Shown here: positions 1 to 33,253 of the stretch, piece after piece | Layout: each line of letters opens with the position of its first letter | Numbering within the stretch: the stretch's first letter is position 1 | NCBI GenBank assembly: GCA_016703885.1 | Contig: JADJBD010000047.1 | Location: 1 to 33,253 of the forward strand | Source: Leptospiraceae bacterium | Lineage (GTDB): Bacteria; Spirochaetota; Leptospiria; Leptospirales; Leptospiraceae | DNA length: 33,253 bases | Reading direction: 5' to 3' | Position numbers and translations under genes: made by a program | The notes under the pieces: generated by a model | What the model saw: the letters and a program-made list of their open reading frames with translations, nothing else | The model's database searches: none | Told to the model about the DNA's origin: nothing

Positions 1-2871
1 ATTTCAACACTCTAAAGAATAACCTCAATTTGGCGATCAATGCGATTAACCAACAAGCAGAGGCAGCAGTTGCCATTTCTGAAGGAAATCTCTCCGTCAA
101 AGTAAATGTTCGCTCTGAAAATGATTTACTCTCAAAGAGTTTAATCACTGTTATGCAAGTCTTGCAAGCCTTACAAAAAGAATTACTTCGTCTTACAGAA
201 GCCTCTAAAGCAGGTATGTTAGATGAAAGAGGAAAACCAGAACAATTCAAAGGTGCCTATGCAGATGTTTTAATTGGCGTAAACACAATGCTCGATGCGA
301 TTCTAATTCCAATAGGGGAAGGAAATAGAGTATTAAGACTTATTAGAGGCGGAAATCTTCGCGAAAGAATGGAGATTGAATGTCGTGGTGATCATCAAAA
401 GATGAAAGATGCAGTGAACGGGGTTCATTTGTGGCTAACAGATCTTGTAGCCTATGTAAATAAGATATCTAACGGTGATTTGACTGCAACAATGAACAAA
501 GCTTCCGAACAAGATCAAATTCATGAGTGGTTGATGCTAATGAAGAATAACATTGGCAACCTCGTCTCTGATGCTGGTATGCTTTCAAAAGCAGTAGAAG
601 GTAAGCTTGCAACACGTGCTGATGCTACTAAACACCAAGGTGACTATCGTAGAATTGTAGAAGGGGTTAATCAGACGTTAGACTCGGTAATCGGTCCTCT
701 TAACGTTGCTGCTGATTATGTTGATAAAATTTCTCGTGGAGCAATTCCTGCTAAGATTTCCGATACTTACAATGGTGACTTCAATGTTATCAAGAACAAC
801 TTAAACAATGCGATTGATAATGTAAACCCACTTGTGGCTGATGCTGGTATGCTCGCGAAAGCGGCTATTGAAGGTAAGCTCGCAACCCGTGCGGATGCAA
901 CTAAACACCAAGGCGACTATCGTAAGATTGTGGAAGGGGTTAATCAGACGTTAGACTCTGTGATTGGTCCTCTCAATGTTGCCGCGGATTATGTAGATAA
1001 AATTTCCCGTGGTGCTATTCCTGCTAAGATTACCGACACTTACAACGGTGACTTCAACGTTCTAAAGAACAACTTAAACAATGCAATTGATAATGTAAAC
1101 GCACTTGTGGCTGATGCCGGTATGCTTGCGAAAGCAGCAGTAGAAGGTAAACTTGCAACTCGTGCTGATGCTACTAAACACCAAGGCGACTATCGTAAGA
1201 TTGTAGAAGGGGTTAATCAGACGTTAGACTCTGTTATCAATCCTCTCAACGTTGCCGCTGATTATGTAGATAAAATTTCCCGCGGGGCTATTCCGACTAA
1301 GATTACGGATACTTACAATGGAGACTTCAACATACTAAAGAACAGCAAACAACGCAATTGATAATGTAAACGCTCTTGTGGCTGACGCTGGAATGCTTGC
1401 GAAAGCGGCTAGTGAAGGTAAGCTTGCAACACGTGCTGATGCAACCAAACACCAGGGAGACTATCGTAAGATCGTGGAAGGGGTTAATCAGACGTTAGAC
1501 TCTGTGATTGGTCCTCTCAATGTTGCGGCAGATTATGTAGATAGAATTTCTCGCGGTGCAATTCCAAATCAAATTACGGATACTTATAATGGGGATTTTA
1601 ACACTCTAAAGAACAACCTTAATCGTTGTATTGAAAACGTAAACGCACTTGTGGCTGATGCCGGTATGCTTGCGAAAGCGGCTATTGACGGTAAGCTTGC
1701 AACACGTGCCGATGCAACTAAACACCAAGGAGATTTCCGTAAGATTGTAGATGGGGTTAACAACACATTAGACGCTGTTATCCTTCCAGTGCAAGAAGCT
1801 TCCGCAGTGTTGCTAGAATTGTCTAAAGGAAACTTAAAAGCTAGAATGCTCGGTGATTACAAGGGAGATCATGCTACTATTAAGACTGCTCTTAATACAA
1901 GTCTGGTAACGTTAAACGATTATGTGGGGGAAATTTCGCGTATCCTCTCTTCTATGTCAGCAGGTGACTTAACTGTTGAAGTAACAAAAGACTTTATGGG
2001 AGATTTTGCTGAAATTAAAAAAGCGTTCACTCTCATCGTTGATTCCTTCAATGAACTCATTGGTGAAATCATCAACGCTTCGGATCAAATCCTCATTAGC
2101 TCTAGACAAGTGGCTGACTCCAGTCAATCTCTCTCGCAAGGATCAAACGAACAAGCTAGTAGCGTAGAAGAGATTACTTCAACGCTAGCAGTAATCGAAC
2201 TCAAAGCTAAGGATAATGCGAAGAATGCGAAGGACGCAAGTGACCAAGCTATGAACGTGAAAGAGCAAGCAGTCTCTAGTAATAACGAAATGAAGGGAAT
2301 GCTCAAAGCGATGGAAGAAATCAGTGAAACATCTGAAAACATTGCGAAGATTATAAAAGAAATAGATGCAATCGCATTCCAAACAAACATACTCGCATTA
2401 AATGCTGCAGTGGAAGCTGCCCGTGCAGGTCAACATGGAAAAGGCTTTAACGTGGTTGCCGAAGAAGTTCGTAACCTTGCTTCTCGTAGCGCGAATGCAG
2501 CGAAAGAAACCACTAAGATGATTGAAGGCTCGATTAAAACAGTTCGTTCTGGTATGGACATTGCGGGAAGAACTGCAAACGAATTGAATAAGATGACAGC
2601 TGGTGTTGTAGATGTTACAGATCTCGTGAAAGACATTGCGAGTGCATCGATTGAGCAGTCTTCGTCGGTAGTAGAGACTACAACCGGTATCAATCAGATT
2701 TCACAGGTGACAATGAGTGCAGCAGCTACAGCAGAAGAAAGCTCAGCAGCTAGTCTTGAGTTGTCTAGCCAAGCAGAAGCGTTCCAGGCAATGGTGAAGA
2801 GATTTCAAATTAAGAAATCAAAAGATGATAAAAGAAGAGACCAACAATCATGGCGGAAAGAAAAAAATTGA
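1..2871 (+). CDS. mcp: Methyl-accepting chemotaxis protein with poly-HAMP array, 5'-partial (continues upstream of the window). Frame is broken near 1341-1356, giving fragments 1..1361 and 1378..2871
   Basis: The frame is open from nt 3 ([10 protein letters not shown]...). Repeated ~90-aa HAMP-pair units ([86 protein letters not shown]). C-terminal MCP signalling domain [47 protein letters not shown]. In unit 3, the sequence aacaacttaaacaatgc found in sister units reads aacagcaaacaacgc, a net -2 nt, which gives a stop at 1359-1361. Confidence 0.8.
561..1790 (+). repeat. Tandem 270-273 bp coding repeats (HAMP-pair units) inside the MCP gene. Unit starts are at about 561, 831, 1104, 1375 and 1648, with more diverged units upstream
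   Basis: Direct comparison of the units shows roughly 85-90% nt identity and near-identical protein. Periods are 270, 273, 271 (the frameshifted unit) and 273 nt. Confidence 0.85.
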
Positions 2872-2893
2872 TTTGAAGTAAGGAGTAAAGTGT

Positions 2894-3382
2894 ATGGCAA
2901 CGACATTTGAAGAAGAACAATTAGAAGAATCTGAAGATACTATGGAGGATCTCTATATCATCTTTTTCATCGATGGAAGAGAGTATGGTATAGAGATTCG
3001 TTACTTGATTGAAATCATTGCGTTTCAACCTGTGACTTTTGTTCCAAACTTACCAGAATATGTTAAGGGAGTAATCAACCTTCGAGGGAAGATTATTCCC
3101 GTCATTGATGTGCGGCTAAGATTCGGTTTACCCAAGATAGACTATACCGAATTCACCTGCATATTGATTATGAATTTTAACAATCTAAGTGCAGGGCTTA
3201 TCGTCGATGGAGTCAAAGAAGTTTTAAAAATTCCAAAAGATTGTATTGAGCCCTCACCAGGATTTGAAGAAGCAAATATGGAGCGATTCGTCGATTCCAT
3301 TGGAAAGTCAGGCGATACATTGAAAATATTGATCGACCTGAATAAGTTTATTCATGAGAAAGATGTAAAAGGAATTGCTTAG
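2894..3382 (+). CDS. cheW: Chemotaxis coupling protein CheW
   Basis: 162 aa with a GGAG RBS 8 nt upstream. The CheW-like domain is recognisable (FFIDGREYGIEIRYLIEII, VINLRGKIIPVIDVR). It sits between the MCP and cheA. Confidence 0.85.
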   Translation: MATTFEEEQLEESEDTMEDLYIIFFIDGREYGIEIRYLIEIIAFQPVTFVPNLPEYVKGVINLRGKIIPVIDVRLRFGLPKIDYTEFTCILIMNFNNLSAGLIVDGVKEVLKIPKDCIEPSPGFEEANMERFVDSIGKSGDTLKILIDLNKFIHEKDVKGIA

Positions 3383-3390
3383 GTTCTACA

Positions 3391-5273
3391 ATGCTTGGAG
3401 AAAATGAACTTTCAGACCTTGTGCTTGATTCACAAGAGATATTGGATAAAGCAGAAGCAATTCTGATCCAATTAGAAAAAAGTTTATCCGAATCAGCGGT
3501 TGACGCAGATAAGGTAAATTCATTATTCCGCTATTTCCATACGCTCAAAGGAAATGCGGGATTTTTCAATTTCAATGTGATAGTAAACCTATCGCATTCA
3601 GCAGAATCATTATTAGAGATTGTAAGAAATGACAATTCTCTTCTTGATCAAAAAATGATTCAGCTCTTCATGGAAGCAAGAGATACTCTATACGAAATAT
3701 TCACAAATTTAAACGAAAACAAAACAGATACAATGTATAAAGAGAAGGCGGATACTTTAATCCCCCGACTCTTCTATATAAAAGAAAATCTAAAAGCAGA
3801 GTCTTCAGAGCCAAAGAAAGAAGAGCCTAGGTTTGGAATCTTTAAAAAGAAAATTGTGCTTTCTGATACTCCAATAACAGAAGAGGATAATAAAAGGAGT
3901 TGCCAGTTTCGAATGAACCTGCCCCTACTCCGGAAAATTCAGAAACAGATAAGCCTGAAAAACCTTTTACAGAGAAAATCACTCAGGAAAATCCTGTTTT
4001 AGAAAAAAAGATTCAAAATACTATAGAGGCAAATAACGGTAATTCGAATGGACAAGCTACAGTAAAAAGAGACATTCGAATCGAAACAGAGAAATTAGAT
4101 TACCTACTAGACATGATTGGTGAGCTAGTGATAGCTGAATCTCTTGTAACTCAAAATCCAGACATCAAAGAACTAGATCTTCCGAACTTTTCTATTCAAT
4201 CTTCCTATTTACGTAAAGTAGTCCGTAATCTACAAGAAGTATCCTTGCAGCTAAGGATGATTACCCTCGAAGGTTTGTTTAATAAAATGGAACGACTTGT
4301 TCGAGACTTAGCACAAAAAACAGGAAAGAAAGTGGGTCTTCAAGTTACGGGAAAAGAAACAGAAATTGATAAGAATGCCCTTGAAATATTAACAGATCCA
4401 CTAGTTCATATTATCCGCAACTGTATCGATCATGGACTGGAAACAGGCAAAGAGAGATTAGCCAAGGGCAAAGCAGAATCCGGACATATCAAGATTGAAG
4501 CAATGCATTCAGGAAATGAAGTATGGATTATAATTTCTGATGATGGTGCTGGTTTAGATAGAGATAGAATTTTGAAAAAAGCAATGGCTCGCGGATTAAT
4601 CAAAGAAGGAGAAGACGAAAATCTAAAAGACGAAAGAATTTGGGATTTTATTTTTCAACCTGGATTCTCGACTAGTGATAGAGTAACTGATATTTCAGGA
4701 CGCGGAGTAGGACTTGATATAGTTCGCAGAAATATAGCAAAGATCAACGGCGATGTTGAAATCAAGACGAAGAAAGACCAGGGAGCATCCTTCATTCTAA
4801 AGCTACCTCTTACAATTGCTATCATTGAAGGTATGGTGGTAATCTACAACGGGGTATTCTATATTATCCCCACAATAGACGTAAAAGAAACACTGAATTT
4901 GGCAGAATCGAAAATCGACTATATCGATCAGGACAAAAAAGTAATTCGCTTCCGAGAGCAGCTAATACCCGTTGTCTCCGTAGAGAGATTACTCAATCAC
5001 GATTCAAGTGACAAGGACTCTAACTACGAAAATTCTTTATATGTAATTATTGTGGAGTATAAGAATAATTCGCTAGCCCTAGTATTTGATGGAATTGTAG
5101 GAAATCAATCGGTTGTAATTAAACCAATTCCAGATTATTTAAAAGGAACAAAGGGCTTTTCAGGTTGCACAATCCTGGGAAGTGGGAATATTGGAATGAT
5201 TCTAGACATTAGATTCTTTATTAATAATTACTACAAGGAAAACAAAGAATCCGAAGCAGCACATGGACAATAA
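3391..5273 (+). CDS. cheA: Chemotaxis histidine kinase CheA, interrupted by a 1-nt frameshift in an A-run near 3889-3900 (fragments 3391..4002 Hpt, 3900..5273 dimerisation/HATPase/CheW-like)
   Basis: Hpt/P1 motif FHTLKGNAGFF. Dimerisation region IRIETEKLDYLLDMIGELVIAES. N-box HIIRNCIDHGLE, G1 DDGAGLDRDRI, G2 GRGVGLDIV, and a C-terminal CheW-like domain. The two ORFs overlap around ...aataaaaggagttgcc... Confidence 0.8.
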
Positions 5274-6342
5274 CAAAAAAATTAAAGTATTTATTGTGGA
5301 CGACCAAAGAGTCGTTCGAAATGTTATTCGAAAAATGATAACGACCGATCCGCGCATTGAAGTGGTAGGAGAAGCTTCAAATCCTTTTGAAGCAAGCGAG
5401 CTGATTCCAGAAAAAGAGCCCGATGTTTTAACTCTAGATGTAGAAATGCCTCGCATGGATGGAGTGGAATTTTTGCGAAAGCTTATGCCTCAGTATCCAA
5501 TCCCTGTGATCATGGTAAGTAGCACAACTGAGGAAGGATCAGAGAAAGCAATTTTAGCAATGCAATATGGTGCAGTTGACTTTGTCACAAAGCCAGATGG
5601 TGGAGCGATTACTCTCGAATCAACGCAAGCAGAATTAATTCAAAAGATTAAAACAGCATCTACGATCAATATTGATAGATGGCTCAAGCAATTAAAATAT
5701 AAATCCATGCCACTCATGAATAATCCTATGGCAGGTAAAAATGGAAAGAGTAAATACAATCTTATTGCTATTGGTGCATCAACTGGTGGAGTGACTGCAA
5801 TACGTCAGGTGCTATCTACAGTGCCTAGAGATTTTCCATGCATTGTGATTACTCAGCATATGCCGCCAGGATTTACGGCTACTTTTTCAAAGGGAGTTTC
5901 TAAAGATTTCGGACTTGATGTGCGAGAAGCAAAAGATCAAGATATAATTCAGACAGGAAGAATTTACGTTGCACCAGGAGACTTTCATTTAGTGGTAAAT
6001 AAAAGAAATGGAATTAATCACACGGTTGGCTTAACTCGTGCCGAAAAAGTTAACGGACATAGACCATCGGTGGATGTTCTATTTCATTCCATTGTTGATA
6101 ATAAACTTGCCAGTGAGACAATTGGCGTTATTTTGACAGGCATGGGAATGGACGGAGCAAAAGGGTTACTAGCAATGCGAGAAGCTGGATCGAGAACCAT
6201 TGGCGAAAGTGAACAGTCGGCACTCATATACGGAATGCCGAAAGTTGCTTACGAAATCGGCGGTGTGGAAGAGCAACTTCCCCTTTCTCAAATGGTGAAT
6301 AAGATAAAAAATTATTTAAACTACTCGGGCCAATATGTCTGA
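5263..6342 (+). CDS. cheB: Chemotaxis response regulator protein-glutamate methylesterase CheB
   Basis: N-terminal receiver (KVFIVDDQRVVRN...LTLDVEMPRMDG). Methylesterase domain (IAIGASTGGVTAI, HMPPGFT, GMGMDGAKG). Confidence 0.9.
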   Translation: MDNNKKIKVFIVDDQRVVRNVIRKMITTDPRIEVVGEASNPFEASELIPEKEPDVLTLDVEMPRMDGVEFLRKLMPQYPIPVIMVSSTTEEGSEKAILAMQYGAVDFVTKPDGGAITLESTQAELIQKIKTASTINIDRWLKQLKYKSMPLMNNPMAGKNGKSKYNLIAIGASTGGVTAIRQVLSTVPRDFPCIVITQHMPPGFTATFSKGVSKDFGLDVREAKDQDIIQTGRIYVAPGDFHLVVNKRNGINHTVGLTRAEKVNGHRPSVDVLFHSIVDNKLASETIGVILTGMGMDGAKGLLAMREAGSRTIGESEQSALIYGMPKVAYEIGGVEEQLPLSQMVNKIKNYLNYSGQYV

Positions 6343-6574
6343 TAAAATATTACTCTATACTCAAAACAAAGAAATAACAGAGCAGGTGAAAACCTACGTT
6401 GATGATCTTACTTACGCTTTCAATGTAGCGGATAATATGGATAATCTCACAAATTATCTTAAATCAGATGACACATGGCTCCTTATTTATGATTTTCTTG
6501 ATACGAGTAGTGAAAATCAAAAAAATCTTGGAAATATTCTTTCAGAATATCCATTCAATTGGTTATTCTATTAA
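6335..6574 (+). CDS. Small ORF with a degenerate receiver-like N-terminal half. Probably the N-terminal part of the next gene, separated by a frameshift or overlap at 6559-6574
   Basis: 79 aa. A beta-alpha pattern with a conserved Asp (WLLIYDF) but no acidic pair at beta1. The REC-like fold appears to continue into ORF 6559..7581 (ILLINREEGDKFLQMMENYHVYDIISYP). Confidence 0.4.
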   Translation: MSDKILLYTQNKEITEQVKTYVDDLTYAFNVADNMDNLTNYLKSDDTWLLIYDFLDTSSENQKNLGNILSEYPFNWLFY

Positions 6575-7581
6575 TCAATCGAGAGGAAGGAGACAAGTTT
6601 CTACAAATGATGGAAAACTATCATGTGTATGATATTATCTCCTACCCAATTTATAAATTCAATTTTCATTTTGCGATAACAAAGGCTATCACCTACGGAA
6701 AGGTGATGTCCAAGATTTCTGATTTTAAATCAAACGAGAAACAAGTTTTCGAATCAATGATTAAAGTATTTGATTGGAGAAAAGAACTTGATACTAGAAA
6801 AGTCGAATCTCTTGCAAATGAATTAATACACCAAATCAATATTAGCTTCTTCCATGGAAGTGGTCTCGGATCACTTATTAGCACACTGAGTATTTTATTT
6901 TCAAAAGCTAAATTAGATGAAGAGAAAAAAGTTTACTTAGTTCATGAAAAAATTTATCACCTATTAAAAGACAACTACGACGAAATTCTAAAACTAAGTG
7001 ATAGTTTAACTAAAACACAAGCCATATTAGCGGAAAAGGATTTTTATATAGGGAAATTAACCCTGAAAGATTTCTATGCTGCATTAACCGAAATGGTAAA
7101 AGGTATGAAACCAGTTGCTGGAATTAAAAATCAGAAGATAGTCATGGGTGATTTTCCTAGAGACCTAGCCGGAAGATCAATTACTGCCAGCCCAGAAAAT
7201 TTGAAGCTAGTCTTTGATGAATTACTAACAAATGCAATTAAATACTCGGAAGATGGAGATACAATCTATATTCTATTTTCACATGATAAAACGGATTTTG
7301 GAATCAGAATCCTGAATCCCGCCTACAAGAATTCAGACGGAACAGTGGGGATAACGGAGAGTAATGCGCATAAAATCTTTGAACCATTTTTTCGATTGAC
7401 TAATGTTGTAGATGATAGATTCATGCAGGAAACATTTCGATTTGGTCTGGGTTTGACAGTTGTAAATAAAATTATTGATTTACACAAAGGGAGTATTTCG
7501 TTTTATACAACAGACAATAATATGAGACGAGAAAACAATATGAAAGATGTATGCGTTTGGGTTCGATTTCCAATTTTATAA
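6559..7581 (+). CDS. Histidine-kinase-like ATPase (HATPase_c) protein, possibly an atypical REC-HK hybrid embedded in the che operon
   Basis: N-box LVFDELLTNAIKYSEDGDTIYI, F-box IFEPFFR, G2 GLGLGLTVVNKIIDLHKGSISF. Possible H-box FFHGSGLGSLISTL. TTG start. Confidence 0.65.
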   Translation: MVILLINREEGDKFLQMMENYHVYDIISYPIYKFNFHFAITKAITYGKVMSKISDFKSNEKQVFESMIKVFDWRKELDTRKVESLANELIHQINISFFHGSGLGSLISTLSILFSKAKLDEEKKVYLVHEKIYHLLKDNYDEILKLSDSLTKTQAILAEKDFYIGKLTLKDFYAALTEMVKGMKPVAGIKNQKIVMGDFPRDLAGRSITASPENLKLVFDELLTNAIKYSEDGDTIYILFSHDKTDFGIRILNPAYKNSDGTVGITESNAHKIFEPFFRLTNVVDDRFMQETFRFGLGLTVVNKIIDLHKGSISFYTTDNNMRRENNMKDVCVWVRFPIL

Positions 7582-7599: not shown

Positions 7600-7959
7600 A
7601 TGAAAAAAGTTCTTATAGTTGATGATTCTCCAATGGTTTTGAATATAATTGAGACTGCCCTAAGCCTCGAAGATTATGATGTAGTTAGAGCGTCTAATGC
7701 CGATGAGGCGCTAAAAAAAATTGAAGAAGGAAAATTCGATTTTGGAATATTCGACGTAAATATGCCTGGAAAAACTGGAATCGAACTTGTCCCACTAGTT
7801 TTAAAACATCCCAATGGCAAATCAATGAAGATTGTAATTCTGACCACCGAATCTAGTGCCGAAATTCGTAAAAAAGGAGAAGACGCAGGAGCATCTGCCT
7901 GGATGGTAAAACCATTTAAAAATGCTGAAATGATTGACCTGCTAAAACAATTAGAGTAG
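7600..7959 (+). CDS. cheY: Chemotaxis response regulator CheY (single receiver domain)
   Basis: 119 aa. Motifs KVLIVDDSPMV, FDVNMPGKTG, KIVILTTES and a C-terminal K(109) in MVKPF. Confidence 0.85.
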   Translation: MKKVLIVDDSPMVLNIIETALSLEDYDVVRASNADEALKKIEEGKFDFGIFDVNMPGKTGIELVPLVLKHPNGKSMKIVILTTESSAEIRKKGEDAGASAWMVKPFKNAEMIDLLKQLE

Positions 7960-21765: not shown

Positions 21766-21975
21766 ATGAGAAAAGAATATGATTTTACTAACTCAAAAAA
21801 GAATCCTTACGCAAGTAAATTAAAAAAACAAATTACTATTAGAATTGATGAGAATACAATTAAGTATTTTAAAGAAGTAGCTGGAGATACAGGAATTCCT
21901 TATCAAAATCTTATAAATTTGTATTTATACGAATGCGCCACAAGTAAAAAGAAATTAGAATTAAAATGGAGTTAA
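21766..21975 (+). CDS. brnA: BrnA-family (CopG/RHH-like) type II antitoxin, apparently orphan
   Basis: GGAGAG RBS. KKQITIRIDENTIKYFKEVAGDTGIPYQNLINLYLYECA matches the BrnA_antitoxin consensus (vtlRld.dvl..fka.a...G.gYQTlIN..LR). Confidence 0.6.
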   Translation: MRKEYDFTNSKKNPYASKLKKQITIRIDENTIKYFKEVAGDTGIPYQNLINLYLYECATSKKKLELKWS

Positions 21976-22059
21976 ACTTATTCTATATCTTTAGGAGAAC
22001 TCGTTTAAAAAATTCTTTTTTTACTTGAGTTTTTCTAATTAGAAGGAAAAACTATTCTC

Positions 22060-22290
22060 ATGAAGACGATTACAGTTTCCATTTCCGAAAATGAATTCGA
22101 GCGATTTGGTATCAATTCAGAGAAAATTGATTTCAAAGAATTACTAGACAAAATAAGCATTGAATTAGCCAGACAGGCTGCTTATCAGTGTCATGAAATA
22201 GCAAAAAGAGTCGGACTATCAACAATGACGATGGACGAAATTAGCGCAGAAGTTAAAGCAGTGAGAATGAATGTAAAAAAACGTTCTTGA
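22060..22290 (+). CDS. Hypothetical small protein (76 aa)
   Basis: AAGGAA RBS. No recognised domain. Confidence 0.45.
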   Translation: MKTITVSISENEFERFGINSEKIDFKELLDKISIELARQAAYQCHEIAKRVGLSTMTMDEISAEVKAVRMNVKKRS

Positions 22291-25963: not shown

Positions 25964-26310
25964 GGGGACGATTTGGTTTCGACTGTTGTAGACCTGGGTA
26001 CTGTGGCATGTAGAGGTGAGAGGCCGCCTTTAAAAACTCTCAAAAAACAAACGCTAACAACGAATTAGCTTTAGCAGCTTAATCTAAGCCGCTACGAGAA
26101 ACTGCTCTAACTTTCCGGTGGGCAGCGTATCGACTCTAAACGGAAAGTTGCACAAGTCGTTCTCCGACTTGGATTTGTGCAGAACCAAAGTTGGATAGGA
26201 GTGAATCACCTGTTTGTAGGTCAAGGCACTTCGAGATTTATTTACAAACTAAACATGTAGAGGCTTTACTTATGTGCAATAGGACCCGGGTTCGACCCCC
26301 GGCGTCTCCA
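25964..26310 (+). ncRNA. ssrA: tmRNA (SsrA), tag peptide reading frame 26053..26082 encoding ANNELALAA-stop
   Basis: 5' GGGGACGATTTGGTTTCGAC. 3' T-arm GGGTTCGACCCCC. Acceptor CGTCTCCA pairs with the 5' GGGGACG. Tag ORF GCT AAC AAC GAA TTA GCT TTA GCA GCT TAA. Confidence 0.9.
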
Positions 26311-31977: not shown

Positions 31978-32673
31978 CTACGGTCCAGACACACAACGCA
32001 CATATTTACTAGTACCCTTCGTGTTGCTGTCCACACGGCTATCCAAGAAATCGACAAACCACGCGTCGCTAGTAGGCGACGCAGTAGTAGAACTCGAATA
32101 CTTGGTGGCAACTGTATTCGGAAATAAAGTATTAATGGAAGGACTTGGAGAGCCTCCACAATCTGCTCCATCGTTTGGCATTGTTGTTGTAGTGTTGCAT
32201 TCAATTAGCAATTTTAATTCATTTTTAGTAGGAACCCGCCAGTTGGTTTTACCGTAAGTCCCTGCACCTGCGTTTAAACCATTGCAAGCTGTATACGCAC
32301 TACTTGTGCCAGTCCCATTTAGGAGACCAGTTCCTGCATCATTGCAAGATTGGTCACCTATATTACAGTATTGAACTGTAGTTGCTCCGTAAGCTGTTGC
32401 AGTGCCAGTTCCTGTGCAATCATTCGTGGATGATTTCCATGTTTGTCCATGACTACATTTCATCCAAGTCAGAGTCTGTGCCGTGTAGGTTTGTCCGCCA
32501 AACGTTCCAGCAGTGACTGCCAATTGAACAGTTCCATTATTATTATCACTAAAGACTCCCCAATTTCGCGTTATTGGAACGCTACATACCAAAGTTACAT
32601 TTGTTACATTTGCAGTTGCGGTTCCTATGCCACTTGTCACTGTGCAAATTAATCCAGTTGGTTGTGTTTTCAC
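31978..32673 (-). CDS. DUF1566 (Lcl C-terminal domain) family protein. This is the intact 3' portion of a longer gene whose upstream part is frame-disrupted
   Basis: C-terminal ...SSSTTASPTSDAWFVDFLDSRVDSNTKGTSKYVRCVSGP, typical of DUF1566. The domain-boundary motif KTQPTGLICTVTSGIGTATANVTNVTLVC. The ORF-track start is a GTG immediately after an in-frame stop. Confidence 0.7.
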   Translation of the reverse strand: MKTQPTGLICTVTSGIGTATANVTNVTLVCSVPITRNWGVFSDNNNGTVQLAVTAGTFGGQTYTAQTLTWMKCSHGQTWKSSTNDCTGTGTATAYGATTVQYCNIGDQSCNDAGTGLLNGTGTSSAYTACNGLNAGAGTYGKTNWRVPTKNELKLLIECNTTTTMPNDGADCGGSPSPSINTLFPNTVATKYSSSTTASPTSDAWFVDFLDSRVDSNTKGTSKYVRCVSGP

Positions 32674-33253
32674 GGTTACTGATACGCGCGTTCAGTTGCT
32701 ATCGAAATACTAAATGTGAAGGGATTGTCCGCACCGCTGCTACTGTCGAATCGTTACTGCATTGTTTTGCAATACCAAAAGCCCGTTGCTGTGGTCCGTG
32801 ATCCGTTCCACCGGATTGTAAATGCGACTGCAGCACAGGTAGTATCTGGAGTTATCCGCGTTTCTGGTTGCCGTCCCTGTTCACGCTGAGGCGTGCGGGT
32901 TAATCCACGGTTGGTTGTGTTTTCGCGGTTACTGCATGGGCTGTTCCTGTTGCTATCGCTGGCCGCTAAATGTGAAGCTGAGTCTCACCGCGCTACTGTT
33001 AAATCGTTACCTGCGTTGTTTTGCAATACCGAGCCCGTTGCTGTGAGTCCCGTAATCGTTCCACCGATTGTATAGGTTGCTGCTGTTCCTGTGCCGCCGG
33101 TTGCCGTTGCCTTTGTTGTTGTTCCACTTCTCTGGAGGCAAGGTGCTGCCGCCGCAGACAGGAGGTTTTATCATCCTTTTTTCTCCTGACAATTTACAAA
33201 TGTCAAAGTCGCAACTAGTGTGATTACCGTAAGACCCATTCCATCCATAGACT
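32674..33253 (-). pseudogene. Frameshifted, GC-rich 5' portion of the DUF1566-family gene. It contains two ~250-bp tandem repeat units (about 32655-32820 and 32905-33070) encoding Thr/Gly/Ala-rich domains (..TYTIGGTITGLTATGSVLQNNAGNDLTV..)
   Basis: The best protein-like frame switches at least three times. The two repeat units differ by single-nt indels. A start with an AGGAG RBS lies at about 33189 on the minus strand (ATGATAAAACCT), but the frame is also open to the window end. Confidence 0.35.

Follow-up and report, generated by a model that had tools for sequence, protein, structure and literature searches.

The first 2871 nucleotides of the stretch analysed here (the window: 33,253 nucleotides, positions 1 to 33,253 of contig JADJBD010000047.1, assembly GCA_016703885.1) encode part of a chemoreceptor whose stalk is built from closely similar tandem modules and whose reading frame stops inside one of them, which raises the question of whether the modules reflect a recent amplification and whether the stop reflects the biology of the host or the quality of the assembly. 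Our analysis showed that this region is the 3' two-thirds of a gene for a transmembrane poly-HAMP methyl-accepting chemotaxis protein (MCP) from an uncultured Leptospiraceae bacterium. The receptor is of an already known kind, as poly-HAMP arrays with nearly identical di-HAMP modules, together with their alternating-rotation relay, have been described before (Coles et al. 2026, PMC13446029), and it is of mild interest for its membrane-bound form and for the variation in modules between strains.

The gene was found in two frame pieces, frame 3 being open from window base 3 to a TGA at 1359–1361 that is followed by a TAA at 1362–1364, and frame 1 being open from approximately 1345 to 2871. The initial annotation of a poly-HAMP chemoreceptor made of ~90-amino-acid (aa) HAMP-pair modules was supported by Pfam, in which the 5' piece matched HAMP_2 (PF18947; E 1.9e-112, four matched stretches) and the 3' piece matched both HAMP_2 (E 6.1e-66, three matched stretches) and MCPsignal (E 5.1e-45), as well as by a 273-nt period in the DNA. 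MCPsignal covered residues 288–445 of the 3' frame, downstream of the final HAMPs, placing the array directly 5' of the MCP signalling domain. The gene is truncated at the window start, its sensor and membrane segments as well as a portion of the array lying upstream of the window. Relatives for comparison were ten metagenome contigs (L001–L010) with an unchanged CheW protein, fetched with their flanks and 93–97% identical to the window in DNA, the nearest of the ten being the NCBI metagenome-assembled genome GCA_018057905.1; in a scan of species-representative genomes the closest were Leptospiraceae genomes with CheW identities of 87–90%. Full-length orthologues on the contigs with identical CheW were 1215–1477 aa long and carried 4HB_MCP_1, a membrane segment, HAMP, HAMP_2 and MCPsignal, with a hydrophobic segment ahead of the first HAMP and an additional weak TarH match. 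The frame from sensor to signalling domain was uninterrupted in all ten related contigs, and in the window it was broken by the stop at 1359–1361. The receptor gene was resolved into the following features.

3–1361, forward strand: 5' receptor frame piece in frame 3, from an open reading frame (ORF) scan and Pfam, ended by the TGA owing to the 2-nt loss.
3–575, forward strand: diverged HAMP modules in two ~91-aa blocks, a feature of the 'long' receptor type (L001, L005) that L003 and L006 lack.
576–845, forward strand: di-HAMP module 1, 90 aa and thus one codon short, with a unit hidden Markov model (HMM) score of 186.5.
846–1118, forward strand: di-HAMP module 2, 91 aa, unit HMM score 193.4.
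1119–1389, forward strand: di-HAMP module 3, 271 nt, bearing the frame break; the unit HMM was run on the sequence repaired with 2 nt.
1390–1662, forward strand: di-HAMP module 4, which alone among the modules has a clear orthologue at the corresponding position in relatives (93–95% identical).
1663–1926, forward strand: module 5, its first HAMP canonical and its second diverged, unit HMM score 93.1.
1378–2871, forward strand: 3' receptor frame (frame 1), holding modules 4 and 5, the terminal HAMPs and the MCP signalling domain (~2239–2712), from the ORF scan and Pfam.

Tandem Repeats Finder returned one array at 568–1782 (period 273, 4.5 copies, 85% matches, score 1672), and a repeat search found five copies in register at spacings of 273, 273, 271 and 273. 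Each module comprises 273 nt or 91 aa and two HAMP-like halves. The initial annotation had counted at least five units with diverged ones upstream; the diverged modules at 3–575 were confirmed, and the count was revised to four full modules (unit HMM scores 186–193) followed by a fifth whose first half alone is canonical. Compared pairwise, these four were 76–88% identical in DNA rather than the 85–90% first proposed, 85% being the identity to the Tandem Repeats Finder consensus, and protein identity between the modules of the window was 84–95%. The diverged block at 3–575 differed from that of L001 by 4 aa over ~180 aa at a DNA identity of ~86%, and module 1 showed an in-frame 3-nt gap at 595–597 in comparison to relatives. 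G10, G23, G31, G56 and G68 were invariant in the module alignment, which also held F/Y in GDY/GDF.

Near-identity of the modules in DNA had been read as a sign of recent amplification, which was not borne out by the divergence of the modules. Synonymous substitution (dS) between the modules of the window ranged from 0.54 to 0.98 with a ratio of non-synonymous to synonymous substitution (dN/dS) of 0.04–0.10, and the 12–24% of DNA differences were nearly all synonymous. In comparison, dS in cheW and cheB was 0.02 against the nearest relative L006 and approximately 0.14–0.15 against the 93%-type L001. As module dS is far above the dS of cheW and cheB between strains, these values indicate duplications that long predate the strain splits, with selection keeping the modules alike as protein. 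Likeness between modules therefore need not imply recent amplification.

The modules nonetheless appear to exchange sequence. Exact runs of 17–53 nt are common to them, long enough for homologous recombination, and the inner modules had a best match of no more than 91% to any relative's module, yet nearly every 16-mer of the array occurs in some relative's module. This pattern fits inner modules that are mosaics from recombination or conversion among modules, and with such mosaicism the 'extra' module of the window cannot be named. Pointing the same way, the signalling part of the receptor (1927–2850) had a dS of 0.43 against L006 in comparison to 0.02 for the adjoining genes (2894–6342; cheW, cheB), which suggests that the receptor gene had a history different from that of its neighbours through recombination, in agreement with the module mosaicism. 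The signalling part was also observed to be closer to the L001 type than to L006. Unequal recombination between modules would add, remove and mix modules, always in frame, and would thereby give close strains with stalks of different length.

Such a difference in length was observed. The number of full modules in the last block was three in L001, L002, L004, L005, L007, L008 and L009, four in the window and six in L003 and L006, and the 182-aa diverged block was present in the window, L001 and L005 and absent from L003 and L006. The variable-length stalk suggested initially thus held up in the comparison of repeat number among related strains that had been proposed with it, and stalk length differs between close strains sharing an identical CheW, subject to the reliability of metagenome assembly. 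A more distant Leptospiraceae genome (L012) carried just one or two canonical modules. Weighing against this reading, the module counts of the relatives were taken from metagenome assemblies, which may misjoin repeats; the three-module form nonetheless recurred in several independent samples.

In the intact protein, as seen in the relatives, a periplasmic four-helix-bundle sensor and a membrane-proximal HAMP are followed by a rod of approximately 15–21 concatenated HAMPs arranged in 91-aa di-HAMP modules, with the MCP signalling (kinase-control) domain, predicted to bind CheW/CheA, last at the C-terminus. Judging from the family, each module would pair two HAMP types that successively invert the signal, such that any whole number of modules would relay the sensor signal along the rod. 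This corresponds to the model of PMC13446029, in which the two HAMP types turn in opposite senses and each module consequently passes the signal on unchanged. HAMP is a dimeric bundle, and arrays of this family are depicted as dimeric parallel four-helix bundles whose rotation states alternate from one HAMP to the next. Equal signalling at any whole number of di-HAMP modules is a prediction of this alternating-rotation model, and strains with different module numbers provide a natural series for asking whether the poly-HAMP rod does signal equally at any whole module number.

The second part of the question concerns the frame break. The net loss of 2 nt and the stop at 1359–1361 were located exactly where they had first been annotated: module 3 reads AAGAACAGC--AAACAACGC, and all relatives and sister modules read AAGAACAACTTAAACAA[T/C]GC (sister form also AAGAACAACTTAAACAATGC), which places the loss between 1346 and 1347. 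The break is private to the window, as all ten related contigs and all ~60 module junctions in related loci were in frame, and the site itself (AAGAACAGCAAACAACGC) contained no simple-sequence tract, that is, neither a single-base run nor a short-unit repeat. Neither a 37-mer spanning the break nor a private 32-mer (1897–1928) occurred in the metagenome contigs searched, the protein/contig index searched contained no exact match to CheB or to the 3' ORF product, and a search of the genome collection for the same strain returned only relatives with 87–90% CheW identity. The receptor is the first gene of a cheW-cheA-cheB-kinase-receiver operon, its signalling domain lying next to cheW and cheA, and further private changes were found along this operon.

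1328–1361, forward strand: private stretch 1328–1346 (3 substitutions), the 2-nt loss and the stops TGA 1359–1361 and TAA 1362–1364, from comparison with relatives.
2829–2881, forward strand: receptor tail with a private substitution cluster and a net loss of 2 nt at 2852–2858, from comparison with relatives.
2894–3382, forward strand: cheW, 162 aa, its protein identical on many metagenome contigs.
3391–5273, forward strand: cheA, split by a private gain of 2 nt (AA) at 3892–3895 into an Hpt piece (3391–4002) and a dimerisation/ATPase/CheW-like piece (3900–5273).
5263–6342, forward strand: cheB, intact, 359 aa, from Pfam and relatives.
6335–7581, forward strand: kinase-like gene (HATPase_c), split by a private loss of 1 nt at 6554–6556; 415 aa in relatives.
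7600–7959, forward strand: receiver-domain gene (CheY-like), intact, from Pfam and relatives.

cheA was whole in all ten relatives (625–626 aa), and the receptor C-terminus, SWRKEKN in the window, was SSSNKKKIDLK in all relatives (stop TAA at 2879–2881). A side observation in cheA was a cluster of 13 window-private substitutions within 42 nt of the linker (3945–3986), ten of them non-synonymous, which may reflect either hypervariability of the linker or the import of a short tract. Directly upstream of the receptor, the 93%-type strains (L001 1–5246, also L002 and L009) carried two more HAMP_2-bearing MCP genes (931 and 916 aa), one of them with weak PAS matches, and a second cheW; L003 had unrelated genes at this position.

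We consider the 2-nt loss to be most likely a consensus error of an error-prone mixed-strain or long-read-like assembly, one of several small-indel errors rather than biology, and the gene in the living cell to be probably intact. This reading follows from the break being private to the window and accompanied by other private frame changes in an assembly that has an indel-ridden end, located as follows.

32683–33253, reverse strand: DUF1566/Lcl_C lipoprotein gene, its 5' part, filling the final 570 bases of the window and bearing ~10 indels of 1–2 nt in comparison to an intact homologue (L099/P0001).

Several of these indels fell in short single-base runs, and the stretch includes a second copy of an ~80-aa repeat domain; the adjoining 700 bases with the rest of the lipoprotein gene (31981–32682) had no indel and high identity. 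The abrupt change in quality at 32683 looks like the unpolished end of a long-read contig and not like natural decay, and the assembly therefore does contain raw-read-like indel errors. In the same lipoprotein family, a 139-aa homologue from another public Leptospiraceae genome at NCBI (P0007, IPH52_18640) ends in KWGVYSLQWFKRRCRD, an out-of-frame reading of the conserved SSAYTACNGLNAGAG, indicating a frameshift there also.

Two further patterns argue for a consensus error. Private substitutions were mostly synonymous (synonymous/non-synonymous 25/4 in the MCP gene, 4/0 in cheB, 4/0 in the kinase gene and 6/1 in the receiver gene), which indicates that selection acted on these genes until almost the present and leaves hardly any neutral time for three to four indels. 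Additionally, two of the indels coincide with or adjoin positions at which strain types diverge, that of the kinase gene falling precisely on a TTT/TTC site and that of cheA immediately beside an A/G site, a pattern expected from a consensus drawn over mixed strains, which tends to fail at such positions.

Several observations weigh against this explanation. The disruptive indels (1347, 3892 and 6554) all fall in one operon within the first 6.6 kb, and no private frame break was found in the genes at 7.6–31.9 kb, whose lengths were as in relatives; three breaks confined to one operon are unlike uniform error and are what relaxed selection on one operon would give. Up to base 1346 the sequence is clean and its protein strongly conserved, indicating that the left part is not of raw-read quality, and two of the indels span 2 nt away from long homopolymers, whereas long-read errors most commonly take another form. 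At 2829–2858 the altered sequence retains a charged tail through K/R and D/E swaps, and this change may be genuine and tolerated. Finally, neither reads nor a second assembly of the strain were found in the collections searched, so that the case for an error is indirect.

The main rival is that the frame breaks are real and that the whole chemosensory operon has very recently lost its function and is starting to decay, with receptor, cheA and kinase each carrying an inactivating indel and the receptor made only as a membrane-anchored sensor and HAMP stub with no output domain. The operon that holds all three disruptive indels is functionally coherent and is neighboured by ~25 kb of intact genes, and the sequence around the breaks is otherwise clean. 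From cheW to the receiver gene, ~30 dispersed private substitutions stand beside two private indels, and a ratio of ~1:10 or lower is normal for bacterial mutation; the private substitutions are, however, so overwhelmingly synonymous that at most a handful would have followed the loss of selection, and three to four indels against so few neutral substitutions exceed the usual ratio (by rough estimate, a chance below ~0.1). The location of the kinase indel on, and of the cheA indel next to, a polymorphic site and the indel-ridden end of the same assembly also weigh against decay, and no other contig in the collections searched carried any of these alleles. We therefore keep recent decay as a minority possibility; the 2-nt loss from which the pseudogenised receptor of the initial annotation was deduced is probably artefactual. 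The broader scenario, in which the array is a recombination hot spot altering stalk length and module order among co-occurring strains of a single activated-sludge Leptospiraceae population and the breaks are also real in a strain just losing its chemosensory pathway, appears unlikely.

Misassembly of the repeats was considered as a further alternative, in which a wrong join or collapse between 273-nt modules, or between the alleles of co-occurring strains, left module 3 and the module count chimeric. Assemblers do struggle in this array, as many short-read contigs of the relatives start inside it (L005–L008, L010), and no module of the relatives closely resembles module 3 (best 90%), the 19 nt leading up to its break are private and the window is one module longer than L005-type relatives. 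Against this, 273 equals 91 × 3, so that a join between modules keeps the frame and a graph assembler makes no 2-nt loss at a join, and a repeat-specific cause fails for the set of breaks, since those in cheA and the kinase gene lie outside repeats. A chimeric array is thus very improbable as the source of the break; the assembly collapse proposed initially was right in pointing to an artefact, and a consensus error takes its place since the collapse of modules whose length is a multiple of 3 nt preserves the frame.

A regulated switch, by slipped-strand phase variation or by a programmed +1 ribosomal frameshift still yielding the full receptor, is scarcely credible. Its sole support is the presence of repeats in the gene and the fact that a +1 shift near 1347–1358 would bring the 3' part back into frame. 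Against it, the site AACAGCAAACAACGC shows neither a homopolymer or short-unit tract nor any slippery or stall motif of a recognised kind, gain or loss of 273-nt modules preserves the frame and cannot turn the gene on or off, the frameshift was seen in 0 of 10 relatives and 0 of ~60 module junctions, and the three other private frame changes nearby include breaks of other kinds (+2, −1) that no single recoding mechanism fits, leaving the phase-variable locus of the initial annotation unsupported.

Restart of translation at GTG 1378 after the break was rejected, as no Shine-Dalgarno-like sequence was seen upstream of it. Promoter-like sites were not commoner than in shuffles, and the antisense ORFs in 1–2871, all of 88 aa or less and inside the conserved sense frame, were treated as chance. 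Unless reads support them, the splits in the receptor, cheA and kinase genes should be taken as evidence neither of pseudogenes nor of a phase-variable locus.

Elsewhere in the window, the gaps at 21.3–22.4 kb and 25.9–26.4 kb were considered as broken genes and rejected, since they hold two complete small antitoxin-like ORFs and a transfer-messenger RNA (tmRNA) gene, respectively. The two antitoxin-like ORFs (21766–22290) lie between fatty-acid hydroxylase and acyl-CoA dehydrogenase genes at a site that in L091–L098 forms a variable island with a ParE toxin pair, an Mrr nuclease, AbiC/HEPN genes, nucleotidyltransferase pairs and transposases. The tmRNA gene (25964–26310) encodes the tag peptide ANNELALAA. 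An 830-aa protein at 8056–10548 (Pfam MVP_shoulder, E 6.3e-24; Vault_3, 1.7e-08; Band_7) is a bacterial protein related to the major vault protein of eukaryotes; its gene adjoins the che operon in all fetched relatives that reach this position.

The receptor was compared with known systems of several kinds. The module profile matched an Aer2 chain of Pseudomonas aeruginosa (3vol; E 5.6e-4, 82 residues aligned), the matched residues of this construct being presumably di-HAMP. Both receptors end in an MCP signalling domain; Aer2, in contrast, is soluble and lacks an extended array of similar modules, a haem-PAS sensor separating its five diverse HAMPs, and no Pfam match to a PAS domain was obtained in the window receptor or its orthologues. 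The fungal group III hybrid histidine kinases (Nik1/Os-1/TcsC), likened to the receptor here by description, are eukaryotic, have kinase output and carry a fixed small number of repeats. Their tandem ~90-aa HAMP-pair repeats form a rod (cited in PMC13446029).

Among solved structures the best match to the array was the crystallised poly-HAMP of AskA from Myxococcus xanthus (PDB 9trk and 9trj; E 2.9e-11 for 9trk, module profile 3.8e-8), with an alignment that spans the full di-HAMP module including the G-K-L...G-x-W/Y/F...N motifs. The AskA array, however, feeds a GAF domain and a histidine kinase module and not an MCP signalling domain, and kinase and chemoreceptor arrays have been assigned to different HAMP groups of independent origins (PMC13446029).

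The reference family is that of chemoreceptor-associated poly-HAMP arrays (Dunin-Horkawicz & Lupas 2010; PMC13446029; exemplar WP_274427672). The receptor shares with it concatenated ~90-aa di-HAMP modules that are nearly identical as protein, an array immediately upstream of the methyl-accepting domain and the HAMP_2 signature. Glycines close to the junctions between HAMPs and the F/Y of GDF/GDY may be further common traits; the VIGPLN glycine is G in most modules and N or L in some. Several differences set the receptor apart. Its long form has an array interrupted by diverged blocks, and its module number and order vary between strains with identical CheW, the copy in the window being frame-broken. 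The main difference is that the family is described as soluble (PMC13446029), whereas the orthologues found here carry a periplasmic 4HB_MCP_1 domain and a membrane-spanning segment.

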